Made by a program: the position numbers and the translations under genes. Shown here in pieces: positions 4,222-59,764 of a DNA stretch of 61,487 nt. The notes below the pieces were generated by a model. The model saw only the letters and a list, made by a program, of their open reading frames with translations, was not told the DNA's origin and made no database searches. Within the stretch, counting starts at the first letter, position 1. The number at the start of each line of letters is the position of its first letter. The stretch is taken from contig JBAYKO010000004.1 of NCBI GenBank assembly GCA_041664605.1, forward strand, positions 1 through 61,487, given 5' to 3'. The DNA is from Minisyncoccota bacterium (GTDB lineage Bacteria; Patescibacteriota; Minisyncoccia; Phycocordibacterales; UBA9973).

Positions 4222-4250
4222 ATTAGGTTATAGGTTTTAGGGAATAGGTT
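4222..4250 (-). repeat. Period-7 array before the recO start
   Basis: Minus strand aacctat tccctaa aacctat aacctaa t, then tcatc ATG. Confidence 0.7.
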
Positions 4251-4261
4251 AAAGTAGAAAA

Positions 4262-7200
4262 TTAATTTTTTTTGATACTAATCTTAAATTCTAGATTATC
4301 AATTTTTACCTCCCTAAACGCTTCTTTAGAAGCGTCGGGCGATCCAGCTTCACTGGATTTAGCTTGCCCATCTGGTATACTTTCGAATTTTATTTCATTT
4401 ATAAAAGCTGATTTTTTAAGAGATTGTTCAAATTTTTGAATTAAATCTTTTCCATTTTCTGTTTCAATAAATAAAACAATAGTGTCTCCTGTTGTTAAGT
4501 TTTCTTTCTTTCTTAATTCCTGAACTTCACGGAAAAATTCACGATACAGTCCTTCTTGTTTTAGTTCTTCTGTAATTTCTGTGTCCAAAACTAAATCATT
4601 TTCTATTTTGTCATCCAAAACAACTTCTTTAACATTCATCTCATCTTTAATTAATTCTAAATATCCATTTGATAACTTTCCGTTTTCCATTTTTAACTTA
4701 AGCGAAGCGAGTGGCTGTTTAACTTTTATTCCAGCTTTTGTTCTAACATCAAGACCTTGAGAAACAATTTCTCTTGTCTTTTGCATATCTTCTATTGTTT
4801 TTTCATTTATTTCCCCTGCCTTTGACCAATCCTCTAAATGCACACTTTCTTTTCCATCAGTGCCCTTCACTTTTTGATAAATTTCTTCAGCAATAAATGG
4901 AGTAAGTGGAGCCATTAATTTTGAAAGTTCAAGTAAAATAAATTTAGTTGTAGCCATGGCGGAGTTTTTATCCTTTTCGTCACCACCTTTAAATCTATCG
5001 CGAGAACGACGAATATACCATTGAGAAAAATCTAAGATAAAATCTCTGGTATTTCTAGATGGTTCAAGTAAATGATAAGTATCTAGGTGCACTGTTGTGT
5101 CCTTAAGAAGTTTATTAAATTTTGTAATTATCCATTTATCTAAAACATTTTCTGATTTTAAAGCTAATCCTAAATCAACATCTTCGCTTGGAAACATTTC
5201 ATAAAACTTCACGATGTTGTTTAAAATGTTAAAAGTTTTTTTAACTACTTCGTCGACAGTTTTTTCATCGAAATTTTTTGAATCCCCTGCTTGGTTGACA
5301 CTATACATCCAAAATCTTAAAGCATCAACTCCATATTTATCCATCATTATCCATGGGTCAACAACGTTGCCGATATGTTTAGACATTTTTTTACCTTTTT
5401 CGTCGAGTAAATGACCAAGACAAATAACGTTTTTATAAGCTTTACCTTTTCCAACTAAAACTCCTATCGCATGGAGTGTATAAAACCAACCACGAGTCTG
5501 GTCTATGGCTTCAGAAATAAAATCTGCTGGATACCCACCTCCGTCAATCCACTCTTTGTTCTCAAATGGATAATGGTCTTGTGCAAATGGCATGGCTCCT
5601 GAATCGAACCAAACATCTAAAACTTCTTTTTCTCGAATCATTTTTCCTCCACAAGAAGAACAGAGGATTTCAAAATCATCGATATATGGTTTATGAATAT
5701 CTAATTCAAAATCATCATTGTGTGGAATTGGAATAAAATTATATTCTTGAAAATCCCCAAAACTGACAATTTCTTCTTGCCAATTTTTCCAAGTTGTCAG
5801 AGCGTCATCTCCATTTAAAATTGATGGTAAAAGTTCAAAAGCGATTCCGTGAGAAACAAATAAAATATTTTCATTTTGAAATTTTCTATCTATGTCATAA
5901 AGAAATTCTGAAATACGCTTTTTTGCGTCATAACAAGATTCGCCACCTTTTGGTGCTGTGAAAAAATCTTCTTTTTCTTTTTGCCACTTATTAAATTCTG
6001 ATTTTGGTTTTCCATTAAATTCTCCAAAATTATATTCATGTAATCTTTCATCAATGATTATTTGATCTTCTGGAAAACCAATAATACTAGCAACAATTTT
6101 TGCTGTTTCTTTTGTCCTTACAAATGGAGAAATAATTATTTTGGTAATATTTTTTTCCTTCAATTTTTCTGCCATTTCCTTAACATGAGCTATTCCATTT
6201 TCAGTTAAATGATGAGGAAAATCAGCAACACCACTACATACATTTAAAACATTGTGCTCCCCTTGCCCGTGTCTCATCCCAAAATATTTATTCCCTGATT
6301 TTTTTGTTCTTTGTTTTAAATCATCCACACTGCCAAGAACCTCCATTTTTTTACACTTCTCACAATTCCAAACAGGAAGTGGTGTTCCCCAATATCTCTC
6401 ACGGGAAATTGCCCAATCCTTTATGTCTCTTAACCATTCACCAAATCTTCCATCTTTAATATATTCTGGTTCCCAATTTATTCCTTCATTCTCTTTTACT
6501 AATTTATCACGAAGTTCTGTCATTCTGATATACCAGGAATCACGGGCATAATAAATTAAAGCTGTGTGGCAACGCCAACAGTGTGGATATGAGTGTTCAT
6601 ATTTTTCTTTTTTAAACAATAAGTTTCTTGAAGCTAAATCTTTTATTACATCAACCGCAACATCTTCATCTCTGACAAATCTTCCTTCCAAAAAACCAGT
6701 TCCAGTTAAAAATTTTCCATCAAGACCAACTAGGTGATGTTTTGGTAATCCTATTTTTGTTCCTAGTTCAAAATCATCTTGTCCATACATCACAGCTGTG
6801 TGCACAACACCGGTTCCATCTTCTGTAGTTACAAAATTTGCCGGATAAATCTTATAAGCTTTATTTAATTTTTCTTTTTCTGGACCAGAAATTGTCTCAT
6901 TTAAAAAATGATATAATGGTTCATATTCCAAACCTAAATTTATAAGGTCTTTACCCTTTATTTCTTCAATAATTTTGTATTCACCATCAATTACAGAAAG
7001 TCTTGCTTTTGCAAGAATAAAAAATTCCCCACTAATTTCAATTTTTACATAATCAATATTTTCTCCAACAGCAAGTGTAATGTTCCCCGGCAAAGTCCAT
7101 GGAGTCGTTGTCCAAGCTAAAATATATTCATTTTCTTTTCCTTTAATCTTAAATTTCACATAAACGGAAAGATCTTTTACATTTTCATAACCTTGAGCAA

Positions 7201-7777
7201 GTTCATGAGAAGAAAGTCCCGTACCACAACGTGGACACCACGGAACAATTTTGTAATCTTTGAAGAGTAAATTTTGATCATTAACTTTTTTTATAACAGC
7301 CCAAACAGATTCCATAAAAGATGCCTTATAAGTAATGTATGGATTTTCTTGGTCCAACCAAAATCCCATGCGGGTAGTAAACTCATTCCATTCAGTTAAA
7401 TATTTCCAAACACTTTCTTTACATTTTTTATTAAATTCGGCTATCCCATAATCTTCAATTTCTTTTTTTGATTTTAAACCAAGTTCTTTTTCTACTTGAA
7501 GTTCAACAGGAAGCCCGTGGGTATCCCAGCCAGCTTTTCTTCTAACATGAAAACCTTGCATTGTTTTATAACGAGGAAGAACATCCTTGAAGGCTCGAGC
7601 CTCAAAGTGGTGAATTCCTGGGTGACCATTTGCAGTTGGGGGACCTTCAAAGAAAACAAACTCTCCTTTTGGAGATTTCTTTTCTAGGCTTTTTTCGAAA
7701 ATTTTATTTTCTTGCCAAAACTTAAGAATTTTCTCTTCGTTTAAAGCAAGTTCTGATTTACCTACGTTTTCATCCAT
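4262..7777 (-). CDS. ileS: Isoleucyl-tRNA synthetase, type 2, with GXHH signature and an inserted histidine phosphatase domain
   Basis: GPPTANGHPGIHH, GWDTHGLPVE, WTTTPWTLPGN, DWAISRERYWGTPLP, DQTRGWFY, KMSKH. Insert RHGQGEHN...SPFVRT...LHE...SHG. Confidence 0.97.
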   Translation of the reverse strand: MDENVGKSELALNEEKILKFWQENKIFEKSLEKKSPKGEFVFFEGPPTANGHPGIHHFEARAFKDVLPRYKTMQGFHVRRKAGWDTHGLPVELQVEKELGLKSKKEIEDYGIAEFNKKCKESVWKYLTEWNEFTTRMGFWLDQENPYITYKASFMESVWAVIKKVNDQNLLFKDYKIVPWCPRCGTGLSSHELAQGYENVKDLSVYVKFKIKGKENEYILAWTTTPWTLPGNITLAVGENIDYVKIEISGEFFILAKARLSVIDGEYKIIEEIKGKDLINLGLEYEPLYHFLNETISGPEKEKLNKAYKIYPANFVTTEDGTGVVHTAVMYGQDDFELGTKIGLPKHHLVGLDGKFLTGTGFLEGRFVRDEDVAVDVIKDLASRNLLFKKEKYEHSYPHCWRCHTALIYYARDSWYIRMTELRDKLVKENEGINWEPEYIKDGRFGEWLRDIKDWAISRERYWGTPLPVWNCEKCKKMEVLGSVDDLKQRTKKSGNKYFGMRHGQGEHNVLNVCSGVADFPHHLTENGIAHVKEMAEKLKEKNITKIIISPFVRTKETAKIVASIIGFPEDQIIIDERLHEYNFGEFNGKPKSEFNKWQKEKEDFFTAPKGGESCYDAKKRISEFLYDIDRKFQNENILFVSHGIAFELLPSILNGDDALTTWKNWQEEIVSFGDFQEYNFIPIPHNDDFELDIHKPYIDDFEILCSSCGGKMIREKEVLDVWFDSGAMPFAQDHYPFENKEWIDGGGYPADFISEAIDQTRGWFYTLHAIGVLVGKGKAYKNVICLGHLLDEKGKKMSKHIGNVVDPWIMMDKYGVDALRFWMYSVNQAGDSKNFDEKTVDEVVKKTFNILNNIVKFYEMFPSEDVDLGLALKSENVLDKWIITKFNKLLKDTTVHLDTYHLLEPSRNTRDFILDFSQWYIRRSRDRFKGGDEKDKNSAMATTKFILLELSKLMAPLTPFIAEEIYQKVKGTDGKESVHLEDWSKAGEINEKTIEDMQKTREIVSQGLDVRTKAGIKVKQPLASLKLKMENGKLSNGYLELIKDEMNVKEVVLDDKIENDLVLDTEITEELKQEGLYREFFREVQELRKKENLTTGDTIVLFIETENGKDLIQKFEQSLKKSAFINEIKFESIPDGQAKSSEAGSPDASKEAFREVKIDNLEFKISIKKN
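4319..4357. repeat. Two-hairpin element inserted in frame near the ileS 3' end
   Basis: cgcttct-tt-agaagcg and tccag-cttca-ctgga; encodes part of SSEAGSPDASKEA; locally GC-rich. Confidence 0.65.
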
Positions 7778-7814
7778 AATATCTATATTTATAACATAAA
7801 ATTAACCATAAAAA

Positions 7815-7834
7815 AATGGCCCCGAAATGGGGCC
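7815..7834 (-). terminator. Hairpin terminator of paralog cassette 1
   Basis: ggcccc-gaaat-ggggcc with an A run on the plus strand (U-tract on the minus strand). Confidence 0.7.
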
Positions 7835-7852
7835 TGAAAAAGATAAATATTT

Positions 7853-8215
7853 TTAAAGATTTTTTTTTGGAATTATTTTCTTGAAATCAACATTGTCGAA
7901 GAGTTCATATATCTCCTCTTCTGAATAGCCTTTTTTCACTAGTTGATTCACTAATGCCCAGTAAAATACAAAAACTCTTCTTAGATCAATATTTGAAAGA
8001 AGTGTTGGAACCATACTAGGCACAAAACCAATTTTTCGTTTTAATTTTTTTGTGGGTTTTTCTGGATTAGTACTTTTGGAGATTAATTCAACAACAGCAG
8101 AAATAAAGCTTGGTGATTTAAGTTGTTTTTCTATTTCCTGAAAAGAGTTATCTTTTTCCCTTAACTCTTTTATTATTTCGTATATAAATATGAATGAAAA
8201 AAATATATTTTTCAT
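7853..8215 (-). CDS. Hypothetical protein, tandem paralog 1 of 3
   Basis: Shares MKN...F..I..II.EL and IDL...F......L.KK.YS...I..L.D..DF..IIP with the next two ORFs. Confidence 0.8.
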   Translation of the reverse strand: MKNIFFSFIFIYEIIKELREKDNSFQEIEKQLKSPSFISAVVELISKSTNPEKPTKKLKRKIGFVPSMVPTLLSNIDLRRVFVFYWALVNQLVKKGYSEEEIYELFDNVDFKKIIPKKNL

Positions 8216-8230
8216 AAGAACTTTTTTATT

Positions 8231-8271
8231 ATTTCTGACAAGACACTAACAAAAAACAAAGATTTTGTCAA
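8231..8271 (-). promoter_or_regulatory. sigma70 promoter, cassette 1
   Basis: TTGACA-17-TAGTGT, then cttGTCAGAAAT. Confidence 0.75.
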
Positions 8272-8273
8272 AT

Positions 8274-8304
8274 AAAAAAATGACCCCGCGGTGGGGTCAT
8301 TTTT
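8274..8304 (-). terminator. Terminator of cassette 2
   Basis: aaaaaaatgacccc-gcggt-ggggtcattttt. Confidence 0.8.
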
Positions 8305-8322
8305 ATGAAACTATACAAGGAA

Positions 8323-8706
8323 TCACCTGGGTAATCTTTTAGGGATAATCGAAGAGAAATCTTCAATGTCAAGCAATTTCCAGATATAATCATCTGAATA
8401 ATTTTTTGTCTTTTTTAGCACTCCAAAAATAGAGTTTAGAAAGAAAAAAGCGTTGGCAAGATCAATTCCGTACAGATTATCAAAGTCTACACTAGCAACA
8501 CTTTTGCGAGAATTATGTCTTCTGACTGATTCTTCTTTTTCATTATTACCATTAATAGTAATAAGGAGTGAGACATCACTAATGAATCTTTTGTCTGTCA
8601 GTAAACGAGGATTAATTACAGATTTTTTTATTTCTCTTTTTTGAAGTTCCTTGATTATTCCATTAAGAAAAATGAGTGCAAAAAATACATCTTTTTTATT
8701 CTTCAT
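8323..8706 (-). CDS. Hypothetical protein, tandem paralog 2 of 3
   Basis: ...GIDLANAFFFLNSIFGVLKKTKNYSDDYIWKLLDIEDFSSIIPKR. Confidence 0.8.
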   Translation of the reverse strand: MKNKKDVFFALIFLNGIIKELQKREIKKSVINPRLLTDKRFISDVSLLITINGNNEKEESVRRHNSRKSVASVDFDNLYGIDLANAFFFLNSIFGVLKKTKNYSDDYIWKLLDIEDFSSIIPKRLPR

Positions 8707-8721
8707 AAGGTACCGATTTAG

Positions 8722-8764
8722 TTATTTCTGACTAGACATTAACAAAAGGTAGTAAATTTGTCAA
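8722..8764 (-). promoter_or_regulatory. sigma70 promoter, cassette 2
   Basis: TTGACA-17-TAATGT, then ctaGTCAGAAATAA. Confidence 0.75.
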
Positions 8765-8778
8765 ATATAAAAATCAAC

Positions 8779-8808
8779 AAAAAATGGCCCTGTTTGTGGA
8801 CCATTTTT
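8779..8808 (-). terminator. Terminator of cassette 3
   Basis: aaaaaatggccc-tgtttgt-ggaccattttt (imperfect). Confidence 0.6.
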
Positions 8809-8824
8809 GAGAATGAAATAATAA

Positions 8825-9223
8825 TTATTCATCGGTAACAAAAACTGATAAGTCATCAGGAATGATTGATGAGAAATCATCAATATCCATTAATTTACAA
8901 ATATAATCATCCTTATAACTTTTCTTCTTTAATACTGATATTACATCATAAAGAAATTTGAAGGCATATTGGAAATTAACCCCATCAAAAGCGTTGAAGC
9001 AAGCTGGGAAGCAACTTTTATCAAAATTATTAATTTTTTTGATTTTTTCTTTTGACTTTTGATTCCAATCTCTGGAAGATATCATATCTGCTACAGCCAT
9101 ATAAAATGTTTCGTCCGTTGTGGACAAAAAAAGTTTATGGATTTCTTCAATTTTTTTACCTCTAATTTTAAGCTCTCTTATAACTCGAGCCAGAAAAGCG
9201 AAACCTAATACCATATTTTTCAT
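8825..9223 (-). CDS. Hypothetical protein, tandem paralog 3 of 3 (start revised from 9331 to 9223)
   Basis: MKNMVLGFAFLARVIREL aligns with the paralog starts. The longer ORF would run through its own promoter and the argS terminator. Confidence 0.8.
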   Translation of the reverse strand: MKNMVLGFAFLARVIRELKIRGKKIEEIHKLFLSTTDETFYMAVADMISSRDWNQKSKEKIKKINNFDKSCFPACFNAFDGVNFQYAFKFLYDVISVLKKKSYKDDYICKLMDIDDFSSIIPDDLSVFVTDE

Positions 9224-9240
9224 AAGAACTAATTTAAGAA

Positions 9241-11164: not shown

Positions 11165-11212
11165 TTGACAAATTTTCAAAAAAATGTAATCTGTAGTCAG
11201 AATAAGTAAATT
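11165..11212 (+). promoter_or_regulatory. sigma70 promoter with AGAA leader motif (thyA)
   Basis: TTGACA-16-TAATCT, then gtaGTCAGAATAAGTAAATT. Confidence 0.75.
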
Positions 11213-11224
11213 AACATATTTAAT

Positions 11225-12148
11225 ATGAAACCAAATTACAAGTATTTATGGAACAGAACCCCTGACAAACAATACAAAAATCTCTTATTGGAAATATTGA
11301 ATGAAGGAGAAAAAGATGATGCACAATCTGGGGTACCAACAATTTCTCGGATTGCCCCAGTATCAATGCGATTTAAATTTGAAAATGGATTCCCTTTAAT
11401 TACAGAAAGAAACATGAACCCAAAAACATCAGAAAGTCTTCCTATAACAGTGTGGCAACAAGCTATTGCTGAAATCTGTGCTTTTATAAATGGAGCAAGA
11501 ACCTTAAAAGAATTTGAAGATTATGGCTGTTATTGGTGGAAAGATTTTTTAACAGAAAAAAAGTGCACAAAAAGAGGACTGGAACCAGGTGATAATGGGC
11601 CAGGATCCTATGGTGCCGCCTTTCATGATTTTCCGATGCCTGACGGAGAAACGTTTAATCAATTTGAGTTTATTATCCGTCAAATATTAGAAAATCCAAT
11701 ATTAAAAACTCATTTTATTTCTCCATGGATTCCTTATTACACTTTCAGAGTAACTGGGCATAAACAAAAAGTTGTTGTTTGTCCATGTCATGGTTGGATT
11801 TTTATTCGAATCATGAATAACAAATTAACACTGAATATGATCCAAAGATCAGGAGATGTACCAATTGGTGTTCCATCAAATATGTGCCAGTACGCTGCGC
11901 TCACAATGATGATTGCCCAAGTAACAAAAACTGTTCCATATGAATATGTGCACAGTTTTATGGATGCACACATTTATGAAAATCAAATTCCTGCCGTAAA
12001 GACAATACTAAGCAGAGAAGACCGTATTTTTCCAATAGTAGAGATGGATGATTCTATTACAAACCTTTTCGATTTCAGAAAAGAGCACTTTGTTCTTAAG
12101 GAATACAATCCCCATCCAGGGATAAAAGGAATACCTGTAACAATATAA
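11225..12148 (+). CDS. thyA: Thymidylate synthase (ThyA type, divergent)
   Basis: GPGSYGA, catalytic CPCH, QRSGDVPIGVPSN, DAHIYENQ, C-terminal YNPHPGIK. Confidence 0.9.
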   Translation: MKPNYKYLWNRTPDKQYKNLLLEILNEGEKDDAQSGVPTISRIAPVSMRFKFENGFPLITERNMNPKTSESLPITVWQQAIAEICAFINGARTLKEFEDYGCYWWKDFLTEKKCTKRGLEPGDNGPGSYGAAFHDFPMPDGETFNQFEFIIRQILENPILKTHFISPWIPYYTFRVTGHKQKVVVCPCHGWIFIRIMNNKLTLNMIQRSGDVPIGVPSNMCQYAALTMMIAQVTKTVPYEYVHSFMDAHIYENQIPAVKTILSREDRIFPIVEMDDSITNLFDFRKEHFVLKEYNPHPGIKGIPVTI

Positions 12149-12658: not shown

Positions 12659-12659
12659 A

Positions 12660-13508
12660 TTAAAAACTCATATCTACAAATATTGTTTCTATTTCATACT
12701 TTTTCAGAATATCCTCACCATCTAAAACTCCATACCCTTCAGAATAAAAGAGTTTTTTAATACCCGATTCTGCAATTAAGTACGTGCAAGGACCACATGG
12801 AAATGTAGAAACATAAATACTTGCACCATTCGTAGAAATTCCATTCTTCGCAGCACTAGCAATAACTCCAGCTTCTGAATGTATAAAACTTGAAAGTTCT
12901 ATATGAATCCCTTTTTTGAAATTATTACGAGGATCACAAAACAAATGAGGAGCATGAGATGAAAGAAGGTGATGATTAAAAGTAATAATAGCGATTTCTT
13001 TTTCTTTTACTAAAACAGACCCTATGTGTCTCCAGATATCGCTACTTTTTTCAGCATGTTCTAATCCAAAACTAATCATTCTGCGATCAAAATCGTCACG
13101 AGAAATTTTTATATCAGGTGAAAGATCTTGTTGTTTGAGTGAATAATCCCTATCATGTCTTAAGAAAAAATCTTTTTCAAAAACAACATTTTTCCCTGAT
13201 AAATATTCCTCTGCAATAGCTATCATTTCCTCTTCTTTTGGAAAAATGATTTCAGAAAAAGAATCAAAATTAGTTAAAGTTGTGAAAAAATTTTCTTCAA
13301 CAACTTCTATTCTCTTGAAAATTTTCAAACTAGAAATCATTGCTTTAATAAGGAATGGATCAATAGCGTTGATATTCTTACCTAATGGACGAAACTTTTG
13401 TGAAAAAGAGCTTCCTAAAATCCCCAGGAATTCGATACCAAAATGTTTTTTAAATAAATTTATATAACTTTGGTGAATCCCGGCCACATAAACAAACATC
13501 GCTTTCAT
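12660..13508 (-). CDS. dCMP deaminase-family protein with N-terminal extension
   Basis: HSEAGVIA and FPCGPC zinc deaminase motifs, GASIYVSTFPC. Confidence 0.85.
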   Translation of the reverse strand: MKAMFVYVAGIHQSYINLFKKHFGIEFLGILGSSFSQKFRPLGKNINAIDPFLIKAMISSLKIFKRIEVVEENFFTTLTNFDSFSEIIFPKEEEMIAIAEEYLSGKNVVFEKDFFLRHDRDYSLKQQDLSPDIKISRDDFDRRMISFGLEHAEKSSDIWRHIGSVLVKEKEIAIITFNHHLLSSHAPHLFCDPRNNFKKGIHIELSSFIHSEAGVIASAAKNGISTNGASIYVSTFPCGPCTYLIAESGIKKLFYSEGYGVLDGEDILKKYEIETIFVDMSF

Positions 13509-14089
13509 TTTGGCACCTCTCCTTCTTTTTTTGTTCCCATCTCATTTGCAAAAAAATTTTCTACATACTCATTTAGGCCAGGGATTAATTTTTGACGTAT
13601 ATCCTTTACCAAATTCATGACCATTAGTCTTATTTTATTACTCGTATGAGTTGTTGCTTGTGGTTCAAGAACCTTAACCTCCCCACAAAATTCTTTCAAT
13701 TTTTCAAGATCCTCATTAGAATAAGTTTCCTGTGTTGCAATTAAAACATCTGGTTTGACTATTTTAATCATCTCCCATTTTGGAGCTTCTTCTTTTAAAA
13801 CAACAAGGCCAACATGCCTAATACGACTGATTGTGTCCATTCTTTCATCTTGTGGAATAATAGGACGAGTATCACCCTTTTTCTTTTTTATTTTGGCATC
13901 GTTGTCGACACCAACAATAAGGTAATCTGCTTGTTCTGAAGCTCTTTCAATATATTTTCCATGCCCAGGATGAAAGATATTCCAAGACCCCATTGTTAAA
14001 ACAATCGTCTGTCCCAACATTCTTTGGCACTTTACGACTGAGTTTAATTCTTCTAATGTTGTTACGATTGGCGCATTTCTTGATTTCAT
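13505..14089 (-). CDS. Cytidylyltransferase-family protein (RfaE/TagD-like)
   Basis: GSWNIFHPGH (HxGH), LIVGVDND, RPIIPQDER, TSNKI. Confidence 0.85.
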   Translation of the reverse strand: MKSRNAPIVTTLEELNSVVKCQRMLGQTIVLTMGSWNIFHPGHGKYIERASEQADYLIVGVDNDAKIKKKKGDTRPIIPQDERMDTISRIRHVGLVVLKEEAPKWEMIKIVKPDVLIATQETYSNEDLEKLKEFCGEVKVLEPQATTHTSNKIRLMVMNLVKDIRQKLIPGLNEYVENFFANEMGTKKEGEVPK

Positions 14090-14095
14090 AATTGT

Positions 14096-14145
14096 AAATT
14101 TGCTTGTTTCTGCCTTAACCTTACCATAAGAATTTTAAATTGCAA
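14096..14145 (-). promoter_or_regulatory. sigma70 promoter with AGAA leader motif
   Basis: TTGCAA-16-TAAGGT, then taaGGCAGAAACAAGCAAATTT. Confidence 0.7.
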
Positions 14146-14148
14146 CAA

Positions 14149-14182
14149 TCAAAAATCCCCACAAATTTGTGGGGATTTTTGA
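14149..14182 (-). terminator. Terminator downstream of rplK
   Basis: tcaaaaatccccacaa-at-ttgtggggatttttga. Confidence 0.85.
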
Positions 14183-14207
14183 TTGTAATTTGTCTCTTTT
14201 TTATTCA

Positions 14208-14277
14208 CTAGAACCTAGCCCCTAGAATCTAGAATCTAGAATCTAGAATCTAGAATCTAGAAGCTAGAAGCTAGCCC
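14208..14277 (+). repeat. Ten-unit CTAG heptamer tandem array overlapping the rplK stop
   Basis: ctagaac ctagccc (ctagaat)x5 (ctagaag)x2 ctagccc. Confidence 0.95.
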
Positions 14278-14696
14278 TTTATCTCTATTCCGGCTGATCT
14301 GGCACTTCCTTCTACTATTTTCATTGCCGCTTCTATATCATTTGCGTTTAGGTCTGGCATTTTCTTTTCGGCAATTTCCTTTAATTGGGCTTTGGTTATT
14401 TTTCCAGCTTTTGTAACTATGTTTTTCTTTGCTCCTTTTTCTACTCCAGCAGCCTTTAAAATAAGACCTGTTACTGGTGGAGTTTTGATTATAAAATCAT
14501 AAGTCCTATCCTCGTAAACTGTAATAACTACAGAAACTGTATCCGGCATCATTGGACGAGTTGCCTCATTGAATTTATTAACGAAATCCCCAATGTTTAC
14601 TCCTGCCTGACCAAGTGCTGGTCCAAGTGGAGGCGCAGGGGTTGCCTTGCCTGCTCCAATTTGTAACTTAATTTTTTTTGTTATTTTTTTAGCCAT
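14271..14696 (-). CDS. rplK: 50S ribosomal protein L11
   Basis: [23 protein letters not shown]...[24 protein letters not shown]. Confidence 0.98.
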
Positions 14697-14809
14697 GATT
14701 GATTTATAAGGAGCTTTGCGACTATATATTTACATAAAATCGGTTCGCTCGATCAAAATAAATTAGTAAACTATTTATTTCTCTCTCCCTGCCGATTATA
14801 AATCGTCAC

Positions 14810-14911
14810 CCAGCACTTATTTTACTTTTAATTTGTACAAAAATCTATTTTTAATCCCTAAATAATACATTATTCTATAAAAAATACTAGTTTTTGTAAA
14901 ATAAGTGCTGG
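14810..14911. repeat. CCAGCAC-family inverted-repeat element enclosing the rplK promoter
   Basis: Perfect 16-bp arms ccagcacttattttac / gtaaaataagtgctgg. TTTACA-17-TAGAAT on the minus strand (14900-14872). Confidence 0.8.
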
Positions 14912-14949
14912 ATTAAGAAAAATATATTCCGCCCTGCTTCATTATTTTT

Positions 14950-15495
14950 CTAAATTTTCTTAACTTGCAAGAAGTCCAGCTCGACAGGTGTTTCTCTACC
15001 AAACATAGATACTAGGACCTTAACTTTTCCTCTTTCTTGATCAATATCACTCACTTTACCTTCTAAATCTTTAAATGGGCCGTCTGCGATAATAATTAAT
15101 TCGCCAATCTGTAGATCAATGTTATGTTTTGCAACAGTGTTGTCCATTTTGCTAAACAAAAAGTCTACTTCCTTTTGTTCAAGTGGAACAGGATTTACTC
15201 CTGAACCAACGAAACCGGTCACGCGGGGAGTATTTCTAACTATGTACCATGTGTCGTCTGTAACTATCATATCTACTAGTACATATCCGGGATAAACTTT
15301 TTCTTCAACTTCAACTCTCTTACCTCCTTTTATTTTTATTTTTTTTTCAGTAGGAACAATGACACTAAAAATTTTATCATTCATTCCAAGTGAATCAATA
15401 CGCTGTTTTAAATTTCTCATAACAGCATTTTCGTACCCAGCATAGGTATGAATAGCGTACCAATTTCTTTCTGGTTTTTGTTCTTGTTTTGACAT
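14950..15495 (-). CDS. nusG: Transcription termination/antitermination factor NusG
   Basis: WYAIHTYAGYEN, YPGYVLVDM, RNTPRVTGFVG, KOW motif GPFKDLEG, FGRETPVEL. Confidence 0.98.
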   Translation of the reverse strand: MSKQEQKPERNWYAIHTYAGYENAVMRNLKQRIDSLGMNDKIFSVIVPTEKKIKIKGGKRVEVEEKVYPGYVLVDMIVTDDTWYIVRNTPRVTGFVGSGVNPVPLEQKEVDFLFSKMDNTVAKHNIDLQIGELIIIADGPFKDLEGKVSDIDQERGKVKVLVSMFGRETPVELDFLQVKKI

Positions 15496-15503
15496 AAATT
15501 ATT

Positions 15504-15686
15504 TTAAAAAGTTAAAAGCTTTTTTAGGAGTGTTGAGAAAATGTAATCAAAAAGCCCTAAATAATAAGCGACGAAAAGTGAAATTAAAATAACGACCAAA
15601 GTAAAAGCAATTGCTTGTTTTTTTGTTGGCCAATTTACGTGCTTAAATTCTGCTCTTGTTTCTTTTATGTAATCTTTTATACCCAT
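15504..15686 (-). CDS. secE: Preprotein translocase subunit SecE (start revised to 15686)
   Basis: YIKETRAEFKHVNWPTKK plus one TM helix; lies upstream of nusG. Confidence 0.93.
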   Translation of the reverse strand: MGIKDYIKETRAEFKHVNWPTKKQAIAFTLVVILISLFVAYYLGLFDYIFSTLLKKLLTF

Positions 15687-15860
15687 AATTTTATTATATT
15701 TATTTTCCTTACTAAAAAACCCCCACAGGGCTATATAAATACTACTTTTTTTTAAGCAAAAAGTCAACCTAACACACTTATTTTATTGTTTTTCTGTTTT
15801 TAATATAATAAGAATCAAAAAATAAAATTTCATTCATAAATAAAGTAAATATATAGGTCA

Positions 15861-17843: not shown

Positions 17844-18004
17844 TATAACAACAAACGAGGAGCAAAACAAAAACTTGTTTTTATTTTGTCCGAGTGTCGT
17901 TGTTATATAGATTTTTAATCTATATAACAACAAGAGAGGAGCGAGGCAAAAAGCTATTTTTGCTTTGTCCGAACGCCGTTGTTATATGATTTTTATATAA
18001 CAAC
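17844..18004. repeat. Tandem about 65-bp elements with TATAACAAC terminal inverted repeats (two full units plus a partial third)
   Basis: tataacaac...gaggagc...ttttgtccga...cgttgttata occurs at 17844 and at about 17922; junctions form palindromes. Confidence 0.75.
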
Positions 18005-27322: not shown

Positions 27323-27323
27323 T

Positions 27324-27358
27324 ATGGTAGGTTATAGGTTAGAGTTTATAGGTTTTAG
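27324..27358 (-). repeat. Period-7 array before the helicase start
   Basis: ctaaaac ctataaa ctctaac ctataac ctaccat aATG. Confidence 0.75.
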
Positions 27359-37737: not shown

Positions 37738-37779
37738 TGATTAGGTTATAGGTTATAGGTTATAGGGTATAGGTTATAG
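37738..37779 (-). repeat. Period-7 array before the dedA-like start
   Basis: ctataac ctatacc ctataac ctataac ctataac ctaatca aATG. Confidence 0.9.
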
Positions 37780-41732: not shown

Positions 41733-41750
41733 TTTTTTCTTTACTAACAA

Positions 41751-41778
41751 CTAGAGCCTAGCCACTAGTACCTAATTA
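41751..41778 (+). repeat. Period-7 CTAG array anchored on the ATPase stop
   Basis: ctagagc ctagcca ctagtac ctaatta. Confidence 0.75.
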
Positions 41779-42476: not shown

Positions 42477-42511
42477 GAATTAGGTTCTAGTTTCTAGTAG
42501 CTAGGTTCTAG
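42477..42511 (-). repeat. Period-7 CTAG array before the ATPase start
   Basis: ctagaac ctagcta ctagaaa ctagaac ctaattc aaATG. Confidence 0.85.
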
Positions 42512-42522
42512 TCTTTAATAGA

Positions 42523-55477: not shown

Positions 55478-55493
55478 CTAAATTTTTTAATTT

Positions 55494-55520
55494 CAAAAAA
55501 TCCGCATTTGCGGGTTTTTT
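55494..55520 (+). terminator. Terminator
   Basis: aaaaaatccgc-attt-gcgggtttttt. Confidence 0.75.
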
Positions 55521-55558
55521 GTATAGCCTTTTAAATTAATATTTGTTAAAATCTAGAC

Positions 55559-56032
55559 ATGAATGAAAAGAAAATATTTGAATGGAATTCTTATGAATTC
55601 ATTCATAAAGAAAAAAAGGTTGATTGGTATTGGGCATTAGGAATAATCGCCATATCGGGAACTATTATTTCAATAATTTATAAAAATTATATTTTTGCAA
55701 TTTTTATAGTTCTGGCTTCTACAGCTCTCGCCTTTTTTGGATCAAAACCACCTGAAATAATAACAATCAAAATAGATAGGAAAGGAATAAAAATACAAGA
55801 CTTGCTTTATTCATATAAAAACATAAAATCATTTTGGGTAAATAAAAGTGAAGACAAATTGATTCTTGATTCAAGTAGAGCTTTTATGCCAATAATGGTT
55901 ATACCAACCAAAGATATTAATGGTGTTGAAATTGAAGAAGACGAATTAAGAGATTTTCTTTTGCAGTTTTTAAAGGAAGAAGAAACAAAAGAACCAATGT
56001 CCCAAAAATTTATGGATTATTTGGGATTTTAA
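55559..56032 (+). CDS. CPR-type two-TM protein with a PH-like cytoplasmic domain
   Basis: EW...E..HKEK..DWYW, two TM helices, Y..IKSFWV, ending ..DYLGF. Confidence 0.75.
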   Translation: MNEKKIFEWNSYEFIHKEKKVDWYWALGIIAISGTIISIIYKNYIFAIFIVLASTALAFFGSKPPEIITIKIDRKGIKIQDLLYSYKNIKSFWVNKSEDKLILDSSRAFMPIMVIPTKDINGVEIEEDELRDFLLQFLKEEETKEPMSQKFMDYLGF

Positions 56033-56116
56033 ATAAGTGGATTTTTAAATATAAAACTGTTAATCTGATAAAGATAACAGTTTTATTTTTAATATATTAA
56101 ATTAATAATATAAAAT

Positions 56117-56183
56117 GCCCTCATAGTTCAAAGCCGACGCAAAAGTCGGCTCTCCGACGCAATAGTCGTCGGAGCGGATAGAA
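56117..56183 (+). pseudogene. tRNA-Arg 5' fragment with a 43-nt D-loop insertion, truncated by the GIY-YIG gene
   Basis: GCCCTCATAGTTCAA-[insert 56132-56174]-CGGATAGAA; 24-bp direct repeat with 56449-56472. Confidence 0.85.
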
Positions 56184-56184
56184 T

Positions 56185-56454
56185 ATGAATAACCAACTAT
56201 GTGTTTATATTTTAAAAAATAAATCCAACAAATATTATGTTGGTAGTACAGACAATCTAGATCGTAGATTACATCAGCACAAAATGGGATATACTCAAAC
56301 AACTCGAAACATGAAATCTTTTCAATTAGTTTTAAAACAAGATTATTCTTCTTTAGAAATGGCAAGAAAAATAGAGAGAAAAATTAAAAAATTAAAAAGA
56401 AAAGATTATATTGAAAAAATGATTAAAGAAGGTTATATTAAATTGGTTATATAA
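56185..56454 (+). CDS. Small stand-alone GIY-YIG nuclease
   Basis: CVYILKN...YYVGSTDNLDRRLHQH...ARKIERKIKK.K. Confidence 0.92.
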   Translation: MNNQLCVYILKNKSNKYYVGSTDNLDRRLHQHKMGYTQTTRNMKSFQLVLKQDYSSLEMARKIERKIKKLKRKDYIEKMIKEGYIKLVI

Positions 56455-56457
56455 AAT

Positions 56458-56532
56458 GCCCTCATAGTTCAACGGATAGAACGTAACTTTGCGGAAGTTA
56501 TGATCCAGGTTCGATTCCTGGTGAGGGCACCA
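56458..56532 (+). tRNA. tRNA-Arg(GCG)
   Basis: GCCCTCA/TGAGGGC-A-CCA, TAACT-TTGCGGA-AGTTA, CCAGG-TTCGATT-CCTGG. Confidence 0.93.
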
Positions 56533-56535
56533 TAA

Positions 56536-56644
56536 ATAGTTCAAAGCCGACGCAACAGTCGGCTCTCCGACACCATGGTCGTCGGAGTGGATAGAACGTA
56601 ACTTTGCGGAAGTTATGATGTAGGTTCGATTCCTACCGAGAGGA
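56536..56644 (+). pseudogene. tRNA-Arg(GCG)-like remnant lacking the 5' acceptor strand, with a 43-nt D-loop insertion
   Basis: ATAGTTCAA-[insert 56545-56587]-TGGATAGAAC, identical anticodon arm, different T arm and 3' end CGAGAGG with no pairing partner. Confidence 0.8.
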
Positions 56645-56671
56645 CAATAATGTAATGATATCATCAGTATC

Positions 56672-56719
56672 TTTACAATGAAATCACAATATGGTAGATT
56701 GAGCACAGAAAAGCAAATT
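56672..56719 (+). promoter_or_regulatory. sigma70 promoter with AGAA leader motif
   Basis: TTTACA-17-TAGATT, then gagCACAGAAAAGCAAATT. Confidence 0.65.
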
Positions 56720-56732
56720 AATAATAAGCATT

Positions 56733-57233
56733 ATGACAGGAGGAACAGCACTTGAGATTTATTTCAATCCTGATGATATTGAAATATATATTGGTAAAGA
56801 AAAAGATAAAAATGATGTTTGGGGACTTTGTTTGTCTCGTGGACCAAGATCAGATCACCATCCATTTAAACTTCTCTTATCTTCAAATGAAAATTCTAAT
56901 TTAACCAAAGGAAAAACTTTGGAAATACTGAGAGATACACTTAACTCAGCAAAGGAGTTCGGTGATAAAATATTTACAAGTAATGATTATGGTCTACTTA
57001 AGATTCTGGTTGGTTGCGGAGATTCCAAATCAAAAAATGAATATGTGAGAAAAATTGCCCCAGTTCTTGAAGATTCAGATATTAAAAGAATTATGACTGA
57101 ATTAGAAGATGAAGAAAAATGCAGTTCCTCAACATATCAATGGAAAATTTGGAAATATCGTTACCATAAAAAATCAATATGCAGGTGGAAAAAGAAAGCA
57201 AACCGTCGCCATTCCAAAAAATCAACAGAATAA
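56733..57233 (+). CDS. Hypothetical protein
   Basis: ORF with its own promoter and terminator. Confidence 0.65.
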   Translation: MTGGTALEIYFNPDDIEIYIGKEKDKNDVWGLCLSRGPRSDHHPFKLLLSSNENSNLTKGKTLEILRDTLNSAKEFGDKIFTSNDYGLLKILVGCGDSKSKNEYVRKIAPVLEDSDIKRIMTELEDEEKCSSSTYQWKIWKYRYHKKSICRWKKKANRRHSKKSTE

Positions 57234-57254
57234 AATCATTAAACTTATTTATTT

Positions 57255-57281
57255 AAAAACCCTCACAATGTGAGGGTTTTT
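57255..57281. terminator. Bidirectional terminator
   Basis: aaaaaccctcac-aat-gtgagggtttt. Confidence 0.8.
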
Positions 57282-57291
57282 ATTTTTTAAT

Positions 57292-57552
57292 TTATTTTTT
57301 TGCCCAATCTTTTATTTCTTCATATGGAGCTTCGCCACAAATCCATTTTCCAGTCTTTGTATTTATTAAAAATGGAACTCCCCCACAAAAACCTTTATCT
57401 AATTCTTCAAGTTGTTTTAGATTTTCTTTATTGTGCCAGATTTCTAATCTATCTATTTTTACTCCTTTTTCTTTTTCTAATTTTTTAGTAAGAATTTGCA
57501 TATCCTCGCAATGAGGACATTCTTCTCCATAAAATTCTTTTAAGTGAGACAT
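57292..57552 (-). CDS. Thioredoxin/glutaredoxin-like protein
   Basis: FYGEECPHC, GVPF cis-Pro motif. Confidence 0.85.
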   Translation of the reverse strand: MSHLKEFYGEECPHCEDMQILTKKLEKEKGVKIDRLEIWHNKENLKQLEELDKGFCGGVPFLINTKTGKWICGEAPYEEIKDWAKK

Positions 57553-57619
57553 AAATATTGGTTAAAAGTAGAAAGTTTATAAAGTTCATCAAGTAGAAAA
57601 ATCTAAGGCTAAATTCAAT

Positions 57620-57880
57620 TTAGATTTTTTTAACCATCCTTGCTAGACGAGATTTTTTTCTTGAAGCAGTGTTCTTTTTGATAGTTCCCTTTTTTGCAGC
57701 TTTATCAATTGCTTTATAAGCAATACTTAAAAGTTTTTTTGCTTCGTCTTTATTTTTAGCTAAAACCGTCTTTGTGATATTTTTTGTAGCTTCTTTTACT
57801 CTCTTTTTTCTTTTATCATTATGAGACTTTTTTGTCTCAGAAGATCTTAGTGCTTTTTTTGCTGATTTTGTAATAGGCAT
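57620..57880 (-). CDS. rpsT: 30S ribosomal protein S20
   Basis: MPITKSAKKALR, IDKAAKKGTIKKNTASRKKSRL. Confidence 0.97.
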   Translation of the reverse strand: MPITKSAKKALRSSETKKSHNDKRKKRVKEATKNITKTVLAKNKDEAKKLLSIAYKAIDKAAKKGTIKKNTASRKKSRLARMVKKI

Positions 57881-57883
57881 AAT

Positions 57884-57925
57884 GGATTAGTTTCTAGTGA
57901 CTAGTTTCTAGGTTCTAGGTTCTAG
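57884..57925 (-). repeat. Period-7 CTAG array before the rpsT start
   Basis: ctagaac ctagaac ctagaaa ctagtca ctagaaa ctaatcc attATG. Confidence 0.9.
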
Positions 57926-57999
57926 AAAACAAAATTAATTTGTATAAACAAAATCATACCAAAATACCCAAAAAAGGCAAATTTTGATATGATAAAAAT

Positions 58000-58581
58000 A
58001 TGATCTCAAGAATTGAAGGAAAACTTATATTAAAAACTGAGAAAATTGCCGTAATTGACGTATCTGGTGTTGGCTATAAAATTAATATCGGCATAGATAC
58101 TTTTTCTCATTTAAAAGACAAGGAAGGGCAAAACCTGGCTTTCTGGACCCATTTGGCAGTCAAAGAAGACTCTATGGAGCTTTATGGATTTGAAGACAGA
58201 GAGCAATTACAGTTTTTTGAAATGCTTTTAAATGTTTCCGGAATTGGACCAAAATCGGCAATTTCAATTATCGGAATTGGTTCTATTGAAAGTCTGAAAA
58301 AGGCTATTGGATCTGGTGATGCTTCTTATTTAAACAAAGTTTCTGGAATTGGAAAAAAGATCGCTGAAAAAATAATTTTTGAACTTAAAGATAAGTTAAA
58401 TACTTATGGATATGAAAGCGGGCAAAAGGCAGAATTACAGTCTGAATCAGACGCGGTCGAAGTATTGCGTTCCCTTGGTTATGGAATGAGTGAAGCAAGA
58501 GATGCATTGAAAAAAGTTTCTCCAGAAATCGAAGGTATTAGTGCAAAAATAAAAGAAGCCCTGAAAATCCTTTCTGGGTAG
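58000..58581 (+). CDS. ruvA: Holliday junction branch migration protein RuvA
   Basis: IDVSGVGY, LYGF, LLNVSGIGPKSA, VSGIGKK.AEKI..ELK, L.SLGY. Confidence 0.97.
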   Translation: MISRIEGKLILKTEKIAVIDVSGVGYKINIGIDTFSHLKDKEGQNLAFWTHLAVKEDSMELYGFEDREQLQFFEMLLNVSGIGPKSAISIIGIGSIESLKKAIGSGDASYLNKVSGIGKKIAEKIIFELKDKLNTYGYESGQKAELQSESDAVEVLRSLGYGMSEARDALKKVSPEIEGISAKIKEALKILSG

Positions 58582-58685
58582 AAAGGATTTTCAGTATTAT
58601 GAAGCAAGTATTATGTATTATGGAAAAAACCAAAAAATAAATTCGTCTCATTCATGAATCCTAATGTTTTAATTAAAAAAATCAT

Positions 58686-58723
58686 CAATACTCAAACTTA
58701 GCGACCGCTAAGTTTGAGTATTG
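58686..58723 (+). terminator. Long hairpin after ruvA
   Basis: caatactcaaacttagcg-ac-cgctaagtttgagtattg. Confidence 0.7.
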
Positions 58724-58740
58724 TATTGGTAGTTTAGATA

Positions 58741-58775
58741 TTTAATACTTAATACATTATACTTAATACATATTT
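58741..58775 (+). repeat. Period-7 array (CTTAATA type) before the mutM start
   Basis: tttaata cttaata cattata cttaata catattt ATG. Confidence 0.7.
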
Positions 58776-59690
58776 ATGCCAGAATTACCAGAAGTACAGA
58801 CCACAGTAAGTGGACTAAAGAAAGTTTTACCAAAACTTAAGATAAATGATTTTTGGAGTGATTTACCTCAAAAAAATCACAAACAAAAAGAGACAATAAA
58901 AAATGCCTCTTATTTTAATTTTTTTAAAAAAGAAATAGTTGGCAAAAAAATTATTGATGTAAAAAGAAAAGCAAAAAATATTTTAATTTTTCTAGATAAT
59001 AACAAAACTATTTTAATTCATATGAAAATGACTGGTCACTTACTTTATGGAAATTATGAAAAAACTAAAGATAGCTGGAAACCAAAAGAAAAAGGACCAC
59101 TCCAAGATCCATACAATAGATTTATTCACGCCGTTTTTATTTTATCAGGTAAAAAACATTTAGCTTTTTCTGATACAAGAAAATTTGGAAAAATTACACT
59201 CCTTGATTCTAATAAATTAGAAGAGTCAAAAGATTTAAAAAATTTAGGCCCGGAACCACTTGAAAAAAATTTCACTTTTCCAAAATTTTTAGAAAGAATT
59301 AATAAAAAACCTAATTGGAAAATAAAACAAGCACTAATGGACCAGTCTTTAATTTCAGGAATTGGAAATATTTATTCCGATGAAATTTTATTTTTCGCCG
59401 GCATCAATCCAGAAGAAAGAGTGACGGATATAGAAAACAAAGAGTTTAGAAAGATGTTTGAAGGAATAAAAACAATTTTAAGTAAAGGAATAAAATTTGG
59501 AGGTGATTCAATGTCTGATTATAGGAATATTGATGGTAAAAAAGGTAATTTCCAATACCACCATTTGGCTTATCAGAGAACTGGAGAAAAATGTAGTAAA
59601 AGAGGGTGTATAGGTGTTATAATAAGAAAAAAAGTTGGTGGAAGAAGTGCACATTTTTGCTCTTGCCACCAGAAGTTAAGAGTTAGGTAG
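58776..59690 (+). CDS. mutM: Formamidopyrimidine-DNA glycosylase (Fpg/Nei)
   Basis: MPELPEV, IHMKMTG, DTRKFG, LGPEPL, GIGNIYSDE, C-terminal zinc finger. Confidence 0.96.
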   Translation: MPELPEVQTTVSGLKKVLPKLKINDFWSDLPQKNHKQKETIKNASYFNFFKKEIVGKKIIDVKRKAKNILIFLDNNKTILIHMKMTGHLLYGNYEKTKDSWKPKEKGPLQDPYNRFIHAVFILSGKKHLAFSDTRKFGKITLLDSNKLEESKDLKNLGPEPLEKNFTFPKFLERINKKPNWKIKQALMDQSLISGIGNIYSDEILFFAGINPEERVTDIENKEFRKMFEGIKTILSKGIKFGGDSMSDYRNIDGKKGNFQYHHLAYQRTGEKCSKRGCIGVIIRKKVGGRSAHFCSCHQKLRVR

Positions 59691-59729
59691 TGAGTATTGT
59701 GTAGTAAGTATTAAGTATAATTTAATTTT

Positions 59730-59764
59730 CTAGAAACTAGAACCTAGCCACTAGAAACTAATTA
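59730..59764 (+). repeat. Period-7 CTAG array before a small ORF
   Basis: ctagaaa ctagaac ctagcca ctagaaa ctaatta ATG. Confidence 0.9.

Follow-up and report, generated by a model that had tools for sequence, protein, structure and literature searches.

We show that the arrays of seven-nucleotide units (heptads) in a 61.5-kb, 30% GC stretch of DNA from a Minisyncoccota bacterium (GenBank assembly GCA_041664605.1, contig JBAYKO010000004.1, positions 1 to 61,487; hereafter the window) are the arms of short quasi-palindromic spacer elements, which lie between a stop codon and the next start codon in some genomes of the candidate phyla radiation (CPR, or Patescibacteria). An original prediction, made from the letters of the window, had described sense and antisense arrays pointing into gene boundaries and had offered three hypotheses for them: a translational insulator, a protein-binding array, or a slippage product anchored on gene ends. 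Each of the three fits part of the evidence and is partly supported, and the finding is more organised than that prediction saw. One inverted module has the sense arrays for one arm and the antisense arrays for the other, the family extends to other CPR lineages, and similar heptamers close to start codons are known from Beggiatoaceae and Nostoc, which places the arrays with a known, so far unexplained kind of element. As to function, we tentatively favour, with somewhat less than even confidence, a transcribed cistron-boundary element that would support initiation independent of Shine-Dalgarno (SD) sequences, or translational coupling.

Anatomy and placement of the arrays

On the coding strand, the module reads stop-(NNNCTAG)n-linker-(CTAGNNN)n-CTAATYN-(0-4 nt)-ATG, and its stop-proximal arm, which often provides the stop codon itself, is an inverted copy of the start-proximal arm. 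Within the window, both arms are present in two spacers, mutM-ORF59765 (CTAG type) and ruvA-mutM (TTAATAC type, arranged around a central hairpin). The start-proximal arm stands alone at recO, dedA, rpsT, and the genes for an ABC ATPase and a RecD/Pif1-like helicase, and the stop-proximal arm stands alone at rplK and at the ABC ATPase stop (Table 1). The arrays consist of 3-10 contiguous heptads with CTA/TAG as the phased trinucleotide, are built from CTAGAAN, CTATAAC and TTAATAC units, and lie outside open reading frames (ORFs) save for their overlap with stop codons. In the mutM-ORF59765 module, a degenerate stop-proximal arm begins at the mutM TAG (AGTTAGG TAGTGAG TATTGTG TAGTAAG and further units) and is followed by the linker TAATTTT and the start-proximal arm CTAGAAA CTAGAAC CTAGCCA CTAGAAA CTAATTA-ATG, the ORF behind it being 58 aa long. 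A CTTAATA/CATAATA variant had been claimed to flank mutM on both sides and to follow ruvA; the heptads at 58741-58775 and 58595-58622 are indeed there, whereas 59688-59715 turns out to belong with 59730-59764 to a single module, of which it forms the degenerate second arm. Just outside the window, a seventh sense array lies 5' of ssb, after rpsF (L128:21488-21524), in a spacer that holds a two-armed CTAG-type module. In all, 9-10 arms occur in ~75 kb of this genome, and the similarity among them is not separable from the heptad they have in common.

The outcomes that would have spoken against the original prediction, namely that other periods are equally common or that the arrays show no boundary or orientation bias, are not what we found. 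In a self-match scan of the window, we recovered 8 period-7 arrays, compared with 0.53 in dinucleotide shuffles, and period 7 alone was over-represented, the numbers for periods 5, 6 and 8-12 being those expected by chance. The claim that sense arrays sit directly 5' of the ATG at recO, the helicase, dedA, the ABC ATPase, rpsT and ORF59765 holds for all six, each of which lies on the coding strand and ends 0-4 nt before the ATG; the gene names given for them agree with the NCBIfam calls. Five of these six arrays end in CTAAT, as had been noted, their last unit reading CTAATYN; the exception is the helicase array, which ends in CTACCAT. Two inverted arrays abut stop codons, overlapping the TAG of rplK (10 units) and the TAA of the ABC ATPase (5 units). 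The antisense assignment of the second of these, at 41744-41778, needs a qualification, since its orientation depends on a palindromic terminal unit (CTAATTAG).

When 8 arrays were placed at random in the 6.4 kb of intergenic DNA, a mean of 0.2 fell next to a start codon, and the observed number of 6 start-adjacent arrays was never reached in 20,000 trials. Adjacency to the ATG is not merely an effect of short spacers, because the array still lies against the ATG in four spacers of 74-132 nt. Array orientation tracks the gene and not the replication strand, as illustrated by rpsT (-) and ORF59765 (+), which are 1.8 kb apart and each have their own sense arm. Moreover, some arrays lie between genes of one operon, at sites where no promoter would be expected: rpsF-ssb, HlyD-ABC and, in a related CPR lineage (locus L029), the spc operon S14-S8-L6-L18-S5-L15-SecY-Adk.

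Other properties of the sequence were considered and rejected as causes. Strand composition in A and T was one candidate for the orientation of the arrays; the sequence is A-rich before starts and after stops alike, and composition therefore fails to explain the inverted stop-proximal arms. Avoidance of CTAG was another, and since CTAG outside the arrays occurs at expectation (observed/expected ratio of 0.95), the genome around the arrays is not depleted in it. Finally, the 5' flank AATTAATTTT seen next to three arrays is a motif that occurs at chance in the window (111 matches vs 100 expected).

A multi-copy family conserved between genomes

We scanned GTDB genomes for three CTAKAAN units and obtained, among the matches listed (the scope of the taxonomic statements that follow), mostly long homogeneous arrays in many phyla, including high-GC genomes. 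A match to the unit is therefore not enough to identify the element. In the low-GC CPR loci L029, L069 and L086, the arrays are made of mixed units ending in CTAAT, and in L029 and L069 these ends abut ATG. Members of the family occur in Paceibacterota, Saccharibacteria and further bins. In L029, modules occupy five spacers of the spc operon within 8 kb; the module is ~75 nt long, and copies 88-95% identical to it are present elsewhere in L029 and in L150, L168 (two copies), L180, L196, L199 and L222. The order of the heptads is fixed (alignment A3), running AATTAGG TTCTAG TTTCTAG GTTCTAG - RGAATTNAAAATCA - CTAGCAA CTAGTCA CTAGCNC CTAGCAN CTAATC. A sequence model (R1) built from these ~75-nt copies and run on low-GC contigs gave 28 full-length matches at or above 40 bits, of which 20 are in sense orientation with the flanking genes, 4 are antisense and 4 are ambiguous. 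On the 5' side, these matches reach to within ~10 nt of a stop codon, and on the 3' side they end between -5 and +4 nt from a start codon. The window arrays match this model as single arms only, with 16-23 bits.

Comparison of orthologous junctions points to purifying selection on the sequence of the module itself. At the S14-S8 junction of L029 and L168, where S8 has 82% amino acid identity and codon positions 1/2/3 are 84/92/58% identical, the module is identical at 80 of 86 positions (93%). At a second junction, in L150 and L222, the flanking gene has 77% amino acid identity (codon positions 81/88/51%), the module is identical at 74 of 83 positions (89%), and the 27-nt stop-proximal arm is the same in three genomes. 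Both S14-S8 copies carry a 2-nt insertion and a CTAGAAN unit not seen in other copies, and these common derived features indicate that the copies were inherited and not inserted independently. The argument for selection is that a non-coding module is conserved like second codon positions; coding DNA is ~70% identical between genomes whose modules stay 88-95% identical.

These data bear directly on the proposal that the arrays are functionless heptanucleotide microsatellites, produced by local replication slippage and intergenic since 7 is not divisible by 3. Slippage would account for the runs of identical units in the window (five CTAGAAT at rplK, three CTATAAC at dedA) and for the long homogeneous CTAGAAC and CTAGAAG arrays found away from genes in many phyla, and a passage of PMC4692102, citing Mrazek 2007, describes heptamer simple sequence repeats as over-represented in many bacterial genomes. 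Yet it leaves unexplained the fixed order of different units in modules that remain 88-95% identical between genomes, the constant CTAAT end, ATG adjacency in long spacers, and conservation at orthologous junctions. Unit number is also constant in five assemblies of the window population: the arrays are identical in contigs of four samples (JGI 3300037810, ERZ27249449, SRR6484324 and SRR18595301), although, with a single population represented, this is a weak test. We therefore regard slippage as a very unlikely general explanation, while the part of the original prediction that concerns it stands as local expansion at rplK and dedA. As for start adjacency, none of 40 arrays in Gammaproteobacteria abuts a start codon, compared with 12 of 76 in Bacteroidota, Acidobacteriota, CPR and Cyanobacteriota (p=0.008), so that in Gammaproteobacteria, where the long homogeneous arrays stay away from starts, the heptad forms ordinary microsatellites. 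Shewanella, Pseudoalteromonas and Vibrio (L005, L054, L072, L090, L103 and others) carry long homogeneous arrays with as many as 22 units, built either as (CTAGAAC)n or as (CTAGAAG)n. Two related metagenomic contigs of ~60% GC, L141 and L167, have CTAGAAG-type arrays that end in CTAATNN-ATG before near-identical gene starts (ATGCC[AT]GAAAACGTAGGACA); hence start-abutting arrays of the CTAGAAG type persist in GC-rich, possibly Acidobacteriota-like genomes. Three or more CTAGAAN units also occur in 32 IMG/VR contigs (L253-L284), several of which are giant-virus metagenome-assembled genomes, and the specific CPR arm CTAGAAACTAGAACCTAAT had no exact match in viral contigs.

The numerous 88-95% identical copies at different loci and contigs also invite another reading, in which the module is a selfish, non-autonomous dispersed repeat of the REPIN/BIME type or like a miniature inverted-repeat transposable element (MITE), its inverted arms being terminal repeats and the single arms decayed copies. 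Such copies would survive only where they are harmless, that is, between stop and start in compact, SD-independent operons, where a palindromic insert could fold so as not to interfere and would block read-through with the stops it carries. The inverted ends of the module (AATTAGG ... CCTAATT) suit this idea, as do its patchy distribution among relatives despite a family reaching from Paceibacterota to Saccharibacteria and further bins, the roughly equal tendency of arms to abut stops and starts, and the failure of any of the 40 listed arrays to adjoin ATG in the SD-dependent Gammaproteobacteria. However, no direct repeat indicative of target-site duplication was present in the bases flanking nine module copies, and no transposase or RAYT gene was noticed among the genes annotated in ~75 kb of this genome. 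The 20:4 bias in orientation and the persistence of single arms next to ATG in long spacers also argue against it, and orthologous copies with common derived features that are 93% identical while synonymous sites approach saturation do not behave like decaying copies. We consider a selfish origin rather unlikely on balance. Database and literature comparisons were negative: at the gathering score, Rfam returned only tRNAs in the window, it gave nothing meaningful in L029, L168, L180 and L150 at E<=1, and a literature search for the unit sequences yielded nothing relevant.

Possible action at cistron boundaries

The genome in which these elements reside rarely uses SD sequences: SD-like sequences precede only ~10 of 60 ATG-start genes in the window, and GGAG, GAGG and AGGA are absent from the upstream regions of the six array-bearing genes. 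Under the reading we favour, the element would be transcribed within the mRNA and act at the cistron boundary. Its A-rich leader, free of AUG and with stops in all frames, may pass ribosomes on to the adjacent AUG, these ribosomes being either those that terminate upstream or freshly loaded ones, and fresh loading might involve a factor able to recognise CUA/UAG triplets spaced 7 nt apart. In two-armed spacers, folding could bring stop and start together and thereby couple translation of the two cistrons, and replication slippage would let unit number drift. Action at the RNA level is favoured because orientation tracks the gene, because copies are operon-internal, and because the rpsT arm is downstream of a promoter, a predicted extended -10 type (TTGCCT-16-TGgTATGAT, 57980-57953) that puts this arm in a predicted 5' untranslated region (UTR). 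Three further reasons are that ATG adjacency is confined to SD-poor lineages, that the ends of two-armed spacers pair in predicted folds, and that the self-complementary rplK array is followed by a terminator hairpin.

In this regard, three two-armed spacers folded more stably than all, or almost all, of 200 shuffles (z = -3.7 and -2.2 in L029, -3.1 for rpsF-ssb), and other spacers were not significant; the ruvA-mutM spacer reached z = -4.75 with its central hairpin included. In the predicted folds of two-armed spacers, the stop-proximal end pairs with the start-proximal end. Single arms are unstructured in folding prediction, the dedA arm having a predicted folding energy of 0 kcal/mol, and a long hairpin is predicted for the rplK array, which is self-complementary and whose unit, CTAGAAT, is itself nearly palindromic (TCTAGA+1).

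Several observations weigh against this interpretation. RNAalifold found no compensatory change in any of 20 pairs across nine modules, and the 3-nt spacers of both arms are conserved yet non-complementary. Folding energy from -45 to +18 around the ATG is the same in array-bearing and other genes (p=0.44), and selection for an unstructured leader was accordingly rejected as a general explanation. Among 118 CTAAT-ending arms sampled from metagenomes, stop-adjacent arms were as common as start-adjacent ones (37 abutting a convergent stop vs 30 abutting a start, the latter with a median gap of 42 nt on the other side), and a pure start-site function is therefore insufficient. The CTAG core is palindromic, which makes recognition at the DNA level possible. 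Moreover, the evidence for conservation comes from the related lineage of L029, L168 and L150 and not from the window genome. Among relatives at ~64% IleS identity, two of three lack arrays and the third has a TAATTAG array at recO, which implies that the element is dispensable and its unit not fixed.

The stop arithmetic behind the insulator hypothesis of the original prediction holds for the CTA arrays. Of these eight arrays, seven carry stops in all three frames when read along the array strand, and the count is again seven for the other strand, as had been proposed; the TTAATAC-type arrays around mutM do not have stops in all frames. On the other hand, nothing shows that these stops are needed, and upstream ORFs terminate before the start-proximal arrays.

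The proposal of a protein-binding array takes its most concrete form as a set of double-strand DNA sites for a dimeric protein, with one heptad per dimer, as in omega (ParB) of pSM19035; such a protein could be a global repressor or an architectural protein at gene boundaries. Contiguous heptads with a palindromic CTAG core, present in direct and inverted orientation and usually 4-6 per arm, fit this model, as does conservation that extends to the non-complementary spacer bases, and heptad arrays have a precedent as protein sites (PMC9499535). We nevertheless judge it unlikely, given that most copies are operon-internal, including those in the spc operon, with no obvious promoter to control, that orientation tracks the gene, and that the strict spacing of 0-4 nt is to the ATG and not to a -10 box. 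No candidate protein was identified, and no protein search was made.

Promoter function has to be considered as well, since an extended -10 box of the type TGnTAnnAT lies exactly 6 nt 5' of the ATG at 5 genes in the window, including ruvA, a spacing that suggests that leaderless mRNAs are common in this genome. The start-proximal arm could thus be the promoter of a leaderless or near-leaderless mRNA, with the penultimate heptad (TAGAAC, TATAAC or TAGAAA) as the -10 element and CTAATYN as the discriminator. The units resemble TATAAT, and one L029 gene reads TGaTATAAT-CTAATT-ATG. However, the spacing from hexamer to ATG is 7-10 nt in place of a sharp 6, neither the T at -7 nor the TG extension is present in most units, arrays occur between genes within the spc operon, and the stop-proximal arms would find no explanation. 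Like arrays also abut ATGs in Bacteroidota and Acidobacteriota, and the promoter consensus of Bacteroidota differs. Taken together, these points make a promoter role highly improbable.

If the reading we favour is pushed further, the modules would represent a host-selected class of intercistronic RNA elements in CPR and other SD-poor bacteria, in which two CUAG-phased arms bridge stop and AUG. They would be read by a partner, either the ribosome or an oligomeric RNA-binding protein specific for triplets 7 nt apart, and would replace SD pairing in operons, including ribosomal-protein ones, by shunt-like termination-reinitiation or by recruitment. This stronger version we think unlikely. Direct contact with the ribosome might presumably involve pairing of CUAGAAA with a UUUCUA(G) tail of 16S rRNA, or of CUAAUC with the 790 loop; no 16S rRNA 3' end was present in any locus compared.

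Genomic setting and relation to known systems

The features of the window are collected in Table 1. NCBIfam calls identified recO, ileS, rplK, the RecD/Pif1-like helicase, dedA, the ABC ATPase, rpsT, ruvA and mutM, and the window also holds a secE-nusG-rplK cluster and an HlyD-ABC-permease operon. The recO arm follows 10 nt after the ileS stop, and the likely ATG of the permease 12 nt beyond the stop-proximal arm of the ABC ATPase. In the rplK arm, five units are identical (ATTCTAG on the coding strand), and the last unit provides the rplK TAG stop (14271-14273). The sequence of the window is also found on a 110-kb contig from JGI (Joint Genome Institute), Ga0376277_0001214, and in 3 other assemblies.

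Table 1. Heptad arrays and associated features of the window, with the period-7 intervals reported by Tandem Repeats Finder (TRF)
Feature	Coordinates	Strand	TRF period-7 interval	Composition and context
recO start-proximal arm	4220..4251	-	4224-4251	CTATTCC CTAAAAC CTATAAC CTAATTC, then ATC-ATG; ATG 4216
Terminator-like hairpin, 19-bp palindrome	14145..14186	-		3' UTR, after rplK array
rplK stop-proximal arm	14205..14277	-	14208-14274	10 heptads; NTTCTAG on coding strand, CTAGAAN on + strand
Helicase (RecD/Pif1-like) start-proximal arm, imperfect	27323..27358	-	27328-27358	CTAAAAC CTATAAA CTCTAAC CTATAAC CTACCAT A-ATG; ATG 27322
dedA start-proximal arm	37738..37779	-	37742-37779	CTATAAC CTATACC CTATAAC x3 CTAATCA, then A-ATG; ATG 37736
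ABC ATPase stop-proximal arm	41744..41778	-		Coding strand TAA-TTAGG TACTAG TGGCTAG GCTCTAG TTGTTAG; TAA 41776-41778
ABC ATPase start-proximal arm	42477..42511	-	42481-42512	CTAGAAC CTAGCTA CTAGAAA CTAGAAC CTAATTC, then AA-ATG; ATG 42474
rpsT start-proximal arm	57884..57925	-	57888-57925	CTAGAAC x2 CTAGAAA CTAGTCA CTAGAAA CTAATCC, then ATT-ATG; ATG 57880
GTATTAT-type heptads after ruvA stop	58595..58622	+		Inverted partner of 58741-58775
Hairpin, 17-bp palindrome, mid ruvA-mutM spacer	58686..58723	+		
TTAATAC-type heptads, 4-5 units	58741..58775	+	58738-58769	End at mutM ATG (58776); pairing with 58595-58622 predicted
mutM-ORF59765 two-armed module	59688..59764	+	59693-59718, 59730-59760	Both arms, CTAG type; fills spacer
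Extended -10 start codons	2581, 19903, 55559, 58000 and others			TGnTAnnAT 6 nt before ATG

Some observations in the window stand apart from the arrays. IleS (4262-7777, -) has a histidine-phosphatase domain (PF00300, phosphoglycerate-mutase-like) inserted mid-enzyme at residues ~495-664, and the identical domain list is found in all 120 of its best homologues, all of Paceibacterota type; the closest are labelled Candidatus Paceibacterota/Nomurabacteria, with 64% identity at most. In a relative, a period-7 array of CAATTAC (x4-5) lies inside ileS itself (L123:13141-13177), and this unit is stop-free in every frame, as heptads within an ORF require. In the region 13505-15767, secE-nusG-rplK is not followed by rplA (L1), and rplK is followed by the 10-unit array, the terminator hairpin and a cytidylyltransferase-like gene; some Parcubacteria lack L1, which fits this arrangement. 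Near-identical upstream regions at 8215-8275, 8706-8766 and 11165-11224 precede the genes at 7853-8215 (120 aa), 8323-8706 (127 aa) and 11225-12148 (307 aa, listed as thymidylate synthase). Each runs in the order TTGACAAA, ~17 nt, a TGTTAnTGT-like -10 and then GTCAGAAATAA, and looks like a conserved promoter and leader. Two long tandem repeats are present, one at 17844-17995 (period 79 nt, 1.9 copies) and one at 60566-60733 (period 77 nt, 2.2 copies), the latter running into tRNA-Lys (60722-60795).

How internal cistrons are translated in SD-poor bacteria, including CPR, Bacteroidota and Cyanobacteria, is an open question that the element touches. Its sequence is conserved to a degree comparable to that of second codon positions in a ribosomal-protein gene, and in practical terms the arrays can serve gene callers as a marker of true starts in CPR genomes. 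If the modules were selfish, they would constitute a REPIN-like family in CPR genomes, of which we know of no report, although no search aimed at one was made.

With REP, BIME and REPIN sequences of proteobacteria, the modules have in common that they are short, extragenic and, in the related contigs, multi-copy, lie in transcription units with non-random orientation, and combine two inverted arm types and a linker into a structure that, in some spacers, is predicted to form a hairpin. They differ in having AATTAGG/CCTAATT ends in place of a GTAG-type end and no RAYT noticed among the genes annotated in ~75 kb, in having arms that are composed of heptads and are not palindromic by themselves, and in that their ends touch start and stop codons, a contact not described for REP sequences. 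Unlike MITEs, they have inverted ends with no target-site duplication at the nine copies compared.

Two protein-recognised arrangements offer further parallels. The omega heptad unit is (A/T)ATCAC(A/T). Omega (ParB) of pSM19035 binds contiguous 7-bp units in direct or inverted orientation, of which at least 4 are needed, with one dimer per heptad (PMC9499535). The arms in the window likewise have at least 4 contiguous 7-bp units, direct and inverted, but omega arrays lie at plasmid promoters and centromeres, whereas the CPR arrays lie at dozens of chromosomal cistron boundaries. In the Bacillus hut leader, HutP recognises XAG motifs separated by 4-nt spacers and grouped in two sets of three, one on each side of a 12-17 nt linker (PMC2425495). 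The resemblance to this site is one of layout only: the mRNA of a CTAG-type module carries UAG every 7 nt (UAG and a 4-nt spacer), 4-5 times per arm, around a linker of 14-16 nt. In contrast to the HutP site, UAG is absent from the mRNA strand of CTATAAC-type arms, the outermost units are inverted and not direct, and the module is not the terminator of a regulated operon.

The closest precedents are start-abutting heptamers, which have been reported twice before and left unexplained both times. In Nostoc PCC 7120, eight GAC(C/T)AAT units of the STRR type overlap the recO start, and similar arrays occur at at least 13 genes; reporter data hint at a regulatory effect of the recO/recF heptamers, which overlap the promoter and LexA/NtcA boxes (bioRxiv 10.1101/2022.06.06.494920). 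In the window, too, recO carries a heptad array, although unit and phylum differ and the Nostoc description includes no inverted second arm. The TAACTGA repeats of marine Beggiatoaceae, found also in some Cyanobacteria and Bacteroidetes (MacGregor 2015), occur as 2-6 contiguous copies that are almost all intergenic and mostly forward, the largest class ending 1 nt before the start; they have no ribosome-binding site, are present in ribosomal-protein operons, and have been proposed to act in translation, their function being unresolved (PMC4679880). The window arrays are likewise contiguous, intergenic and start-abutting, with stop-containing units, no ribosome-binding site, and occurrence in the ribosomal operons of relatives. 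The role that we favour here has already been suggested both for the TAACTGA repeats and for the heptamers at Nostoc recO/recF. In contrast to the TAACTGA repeats, the window units are CTAGAAN and CTATAAC, none being TAACTGA; the CTAG core is palindromic, the array closes with a distinct CTAATYN unit, the host belongs to CPR, and the CPR repeats form inverted two-arm modules that also abut stops and are conserved across genomes. The phenomenon now extends to CPR, and what is new is that such repeats can form a defined two-arm module reaching from stop to start.

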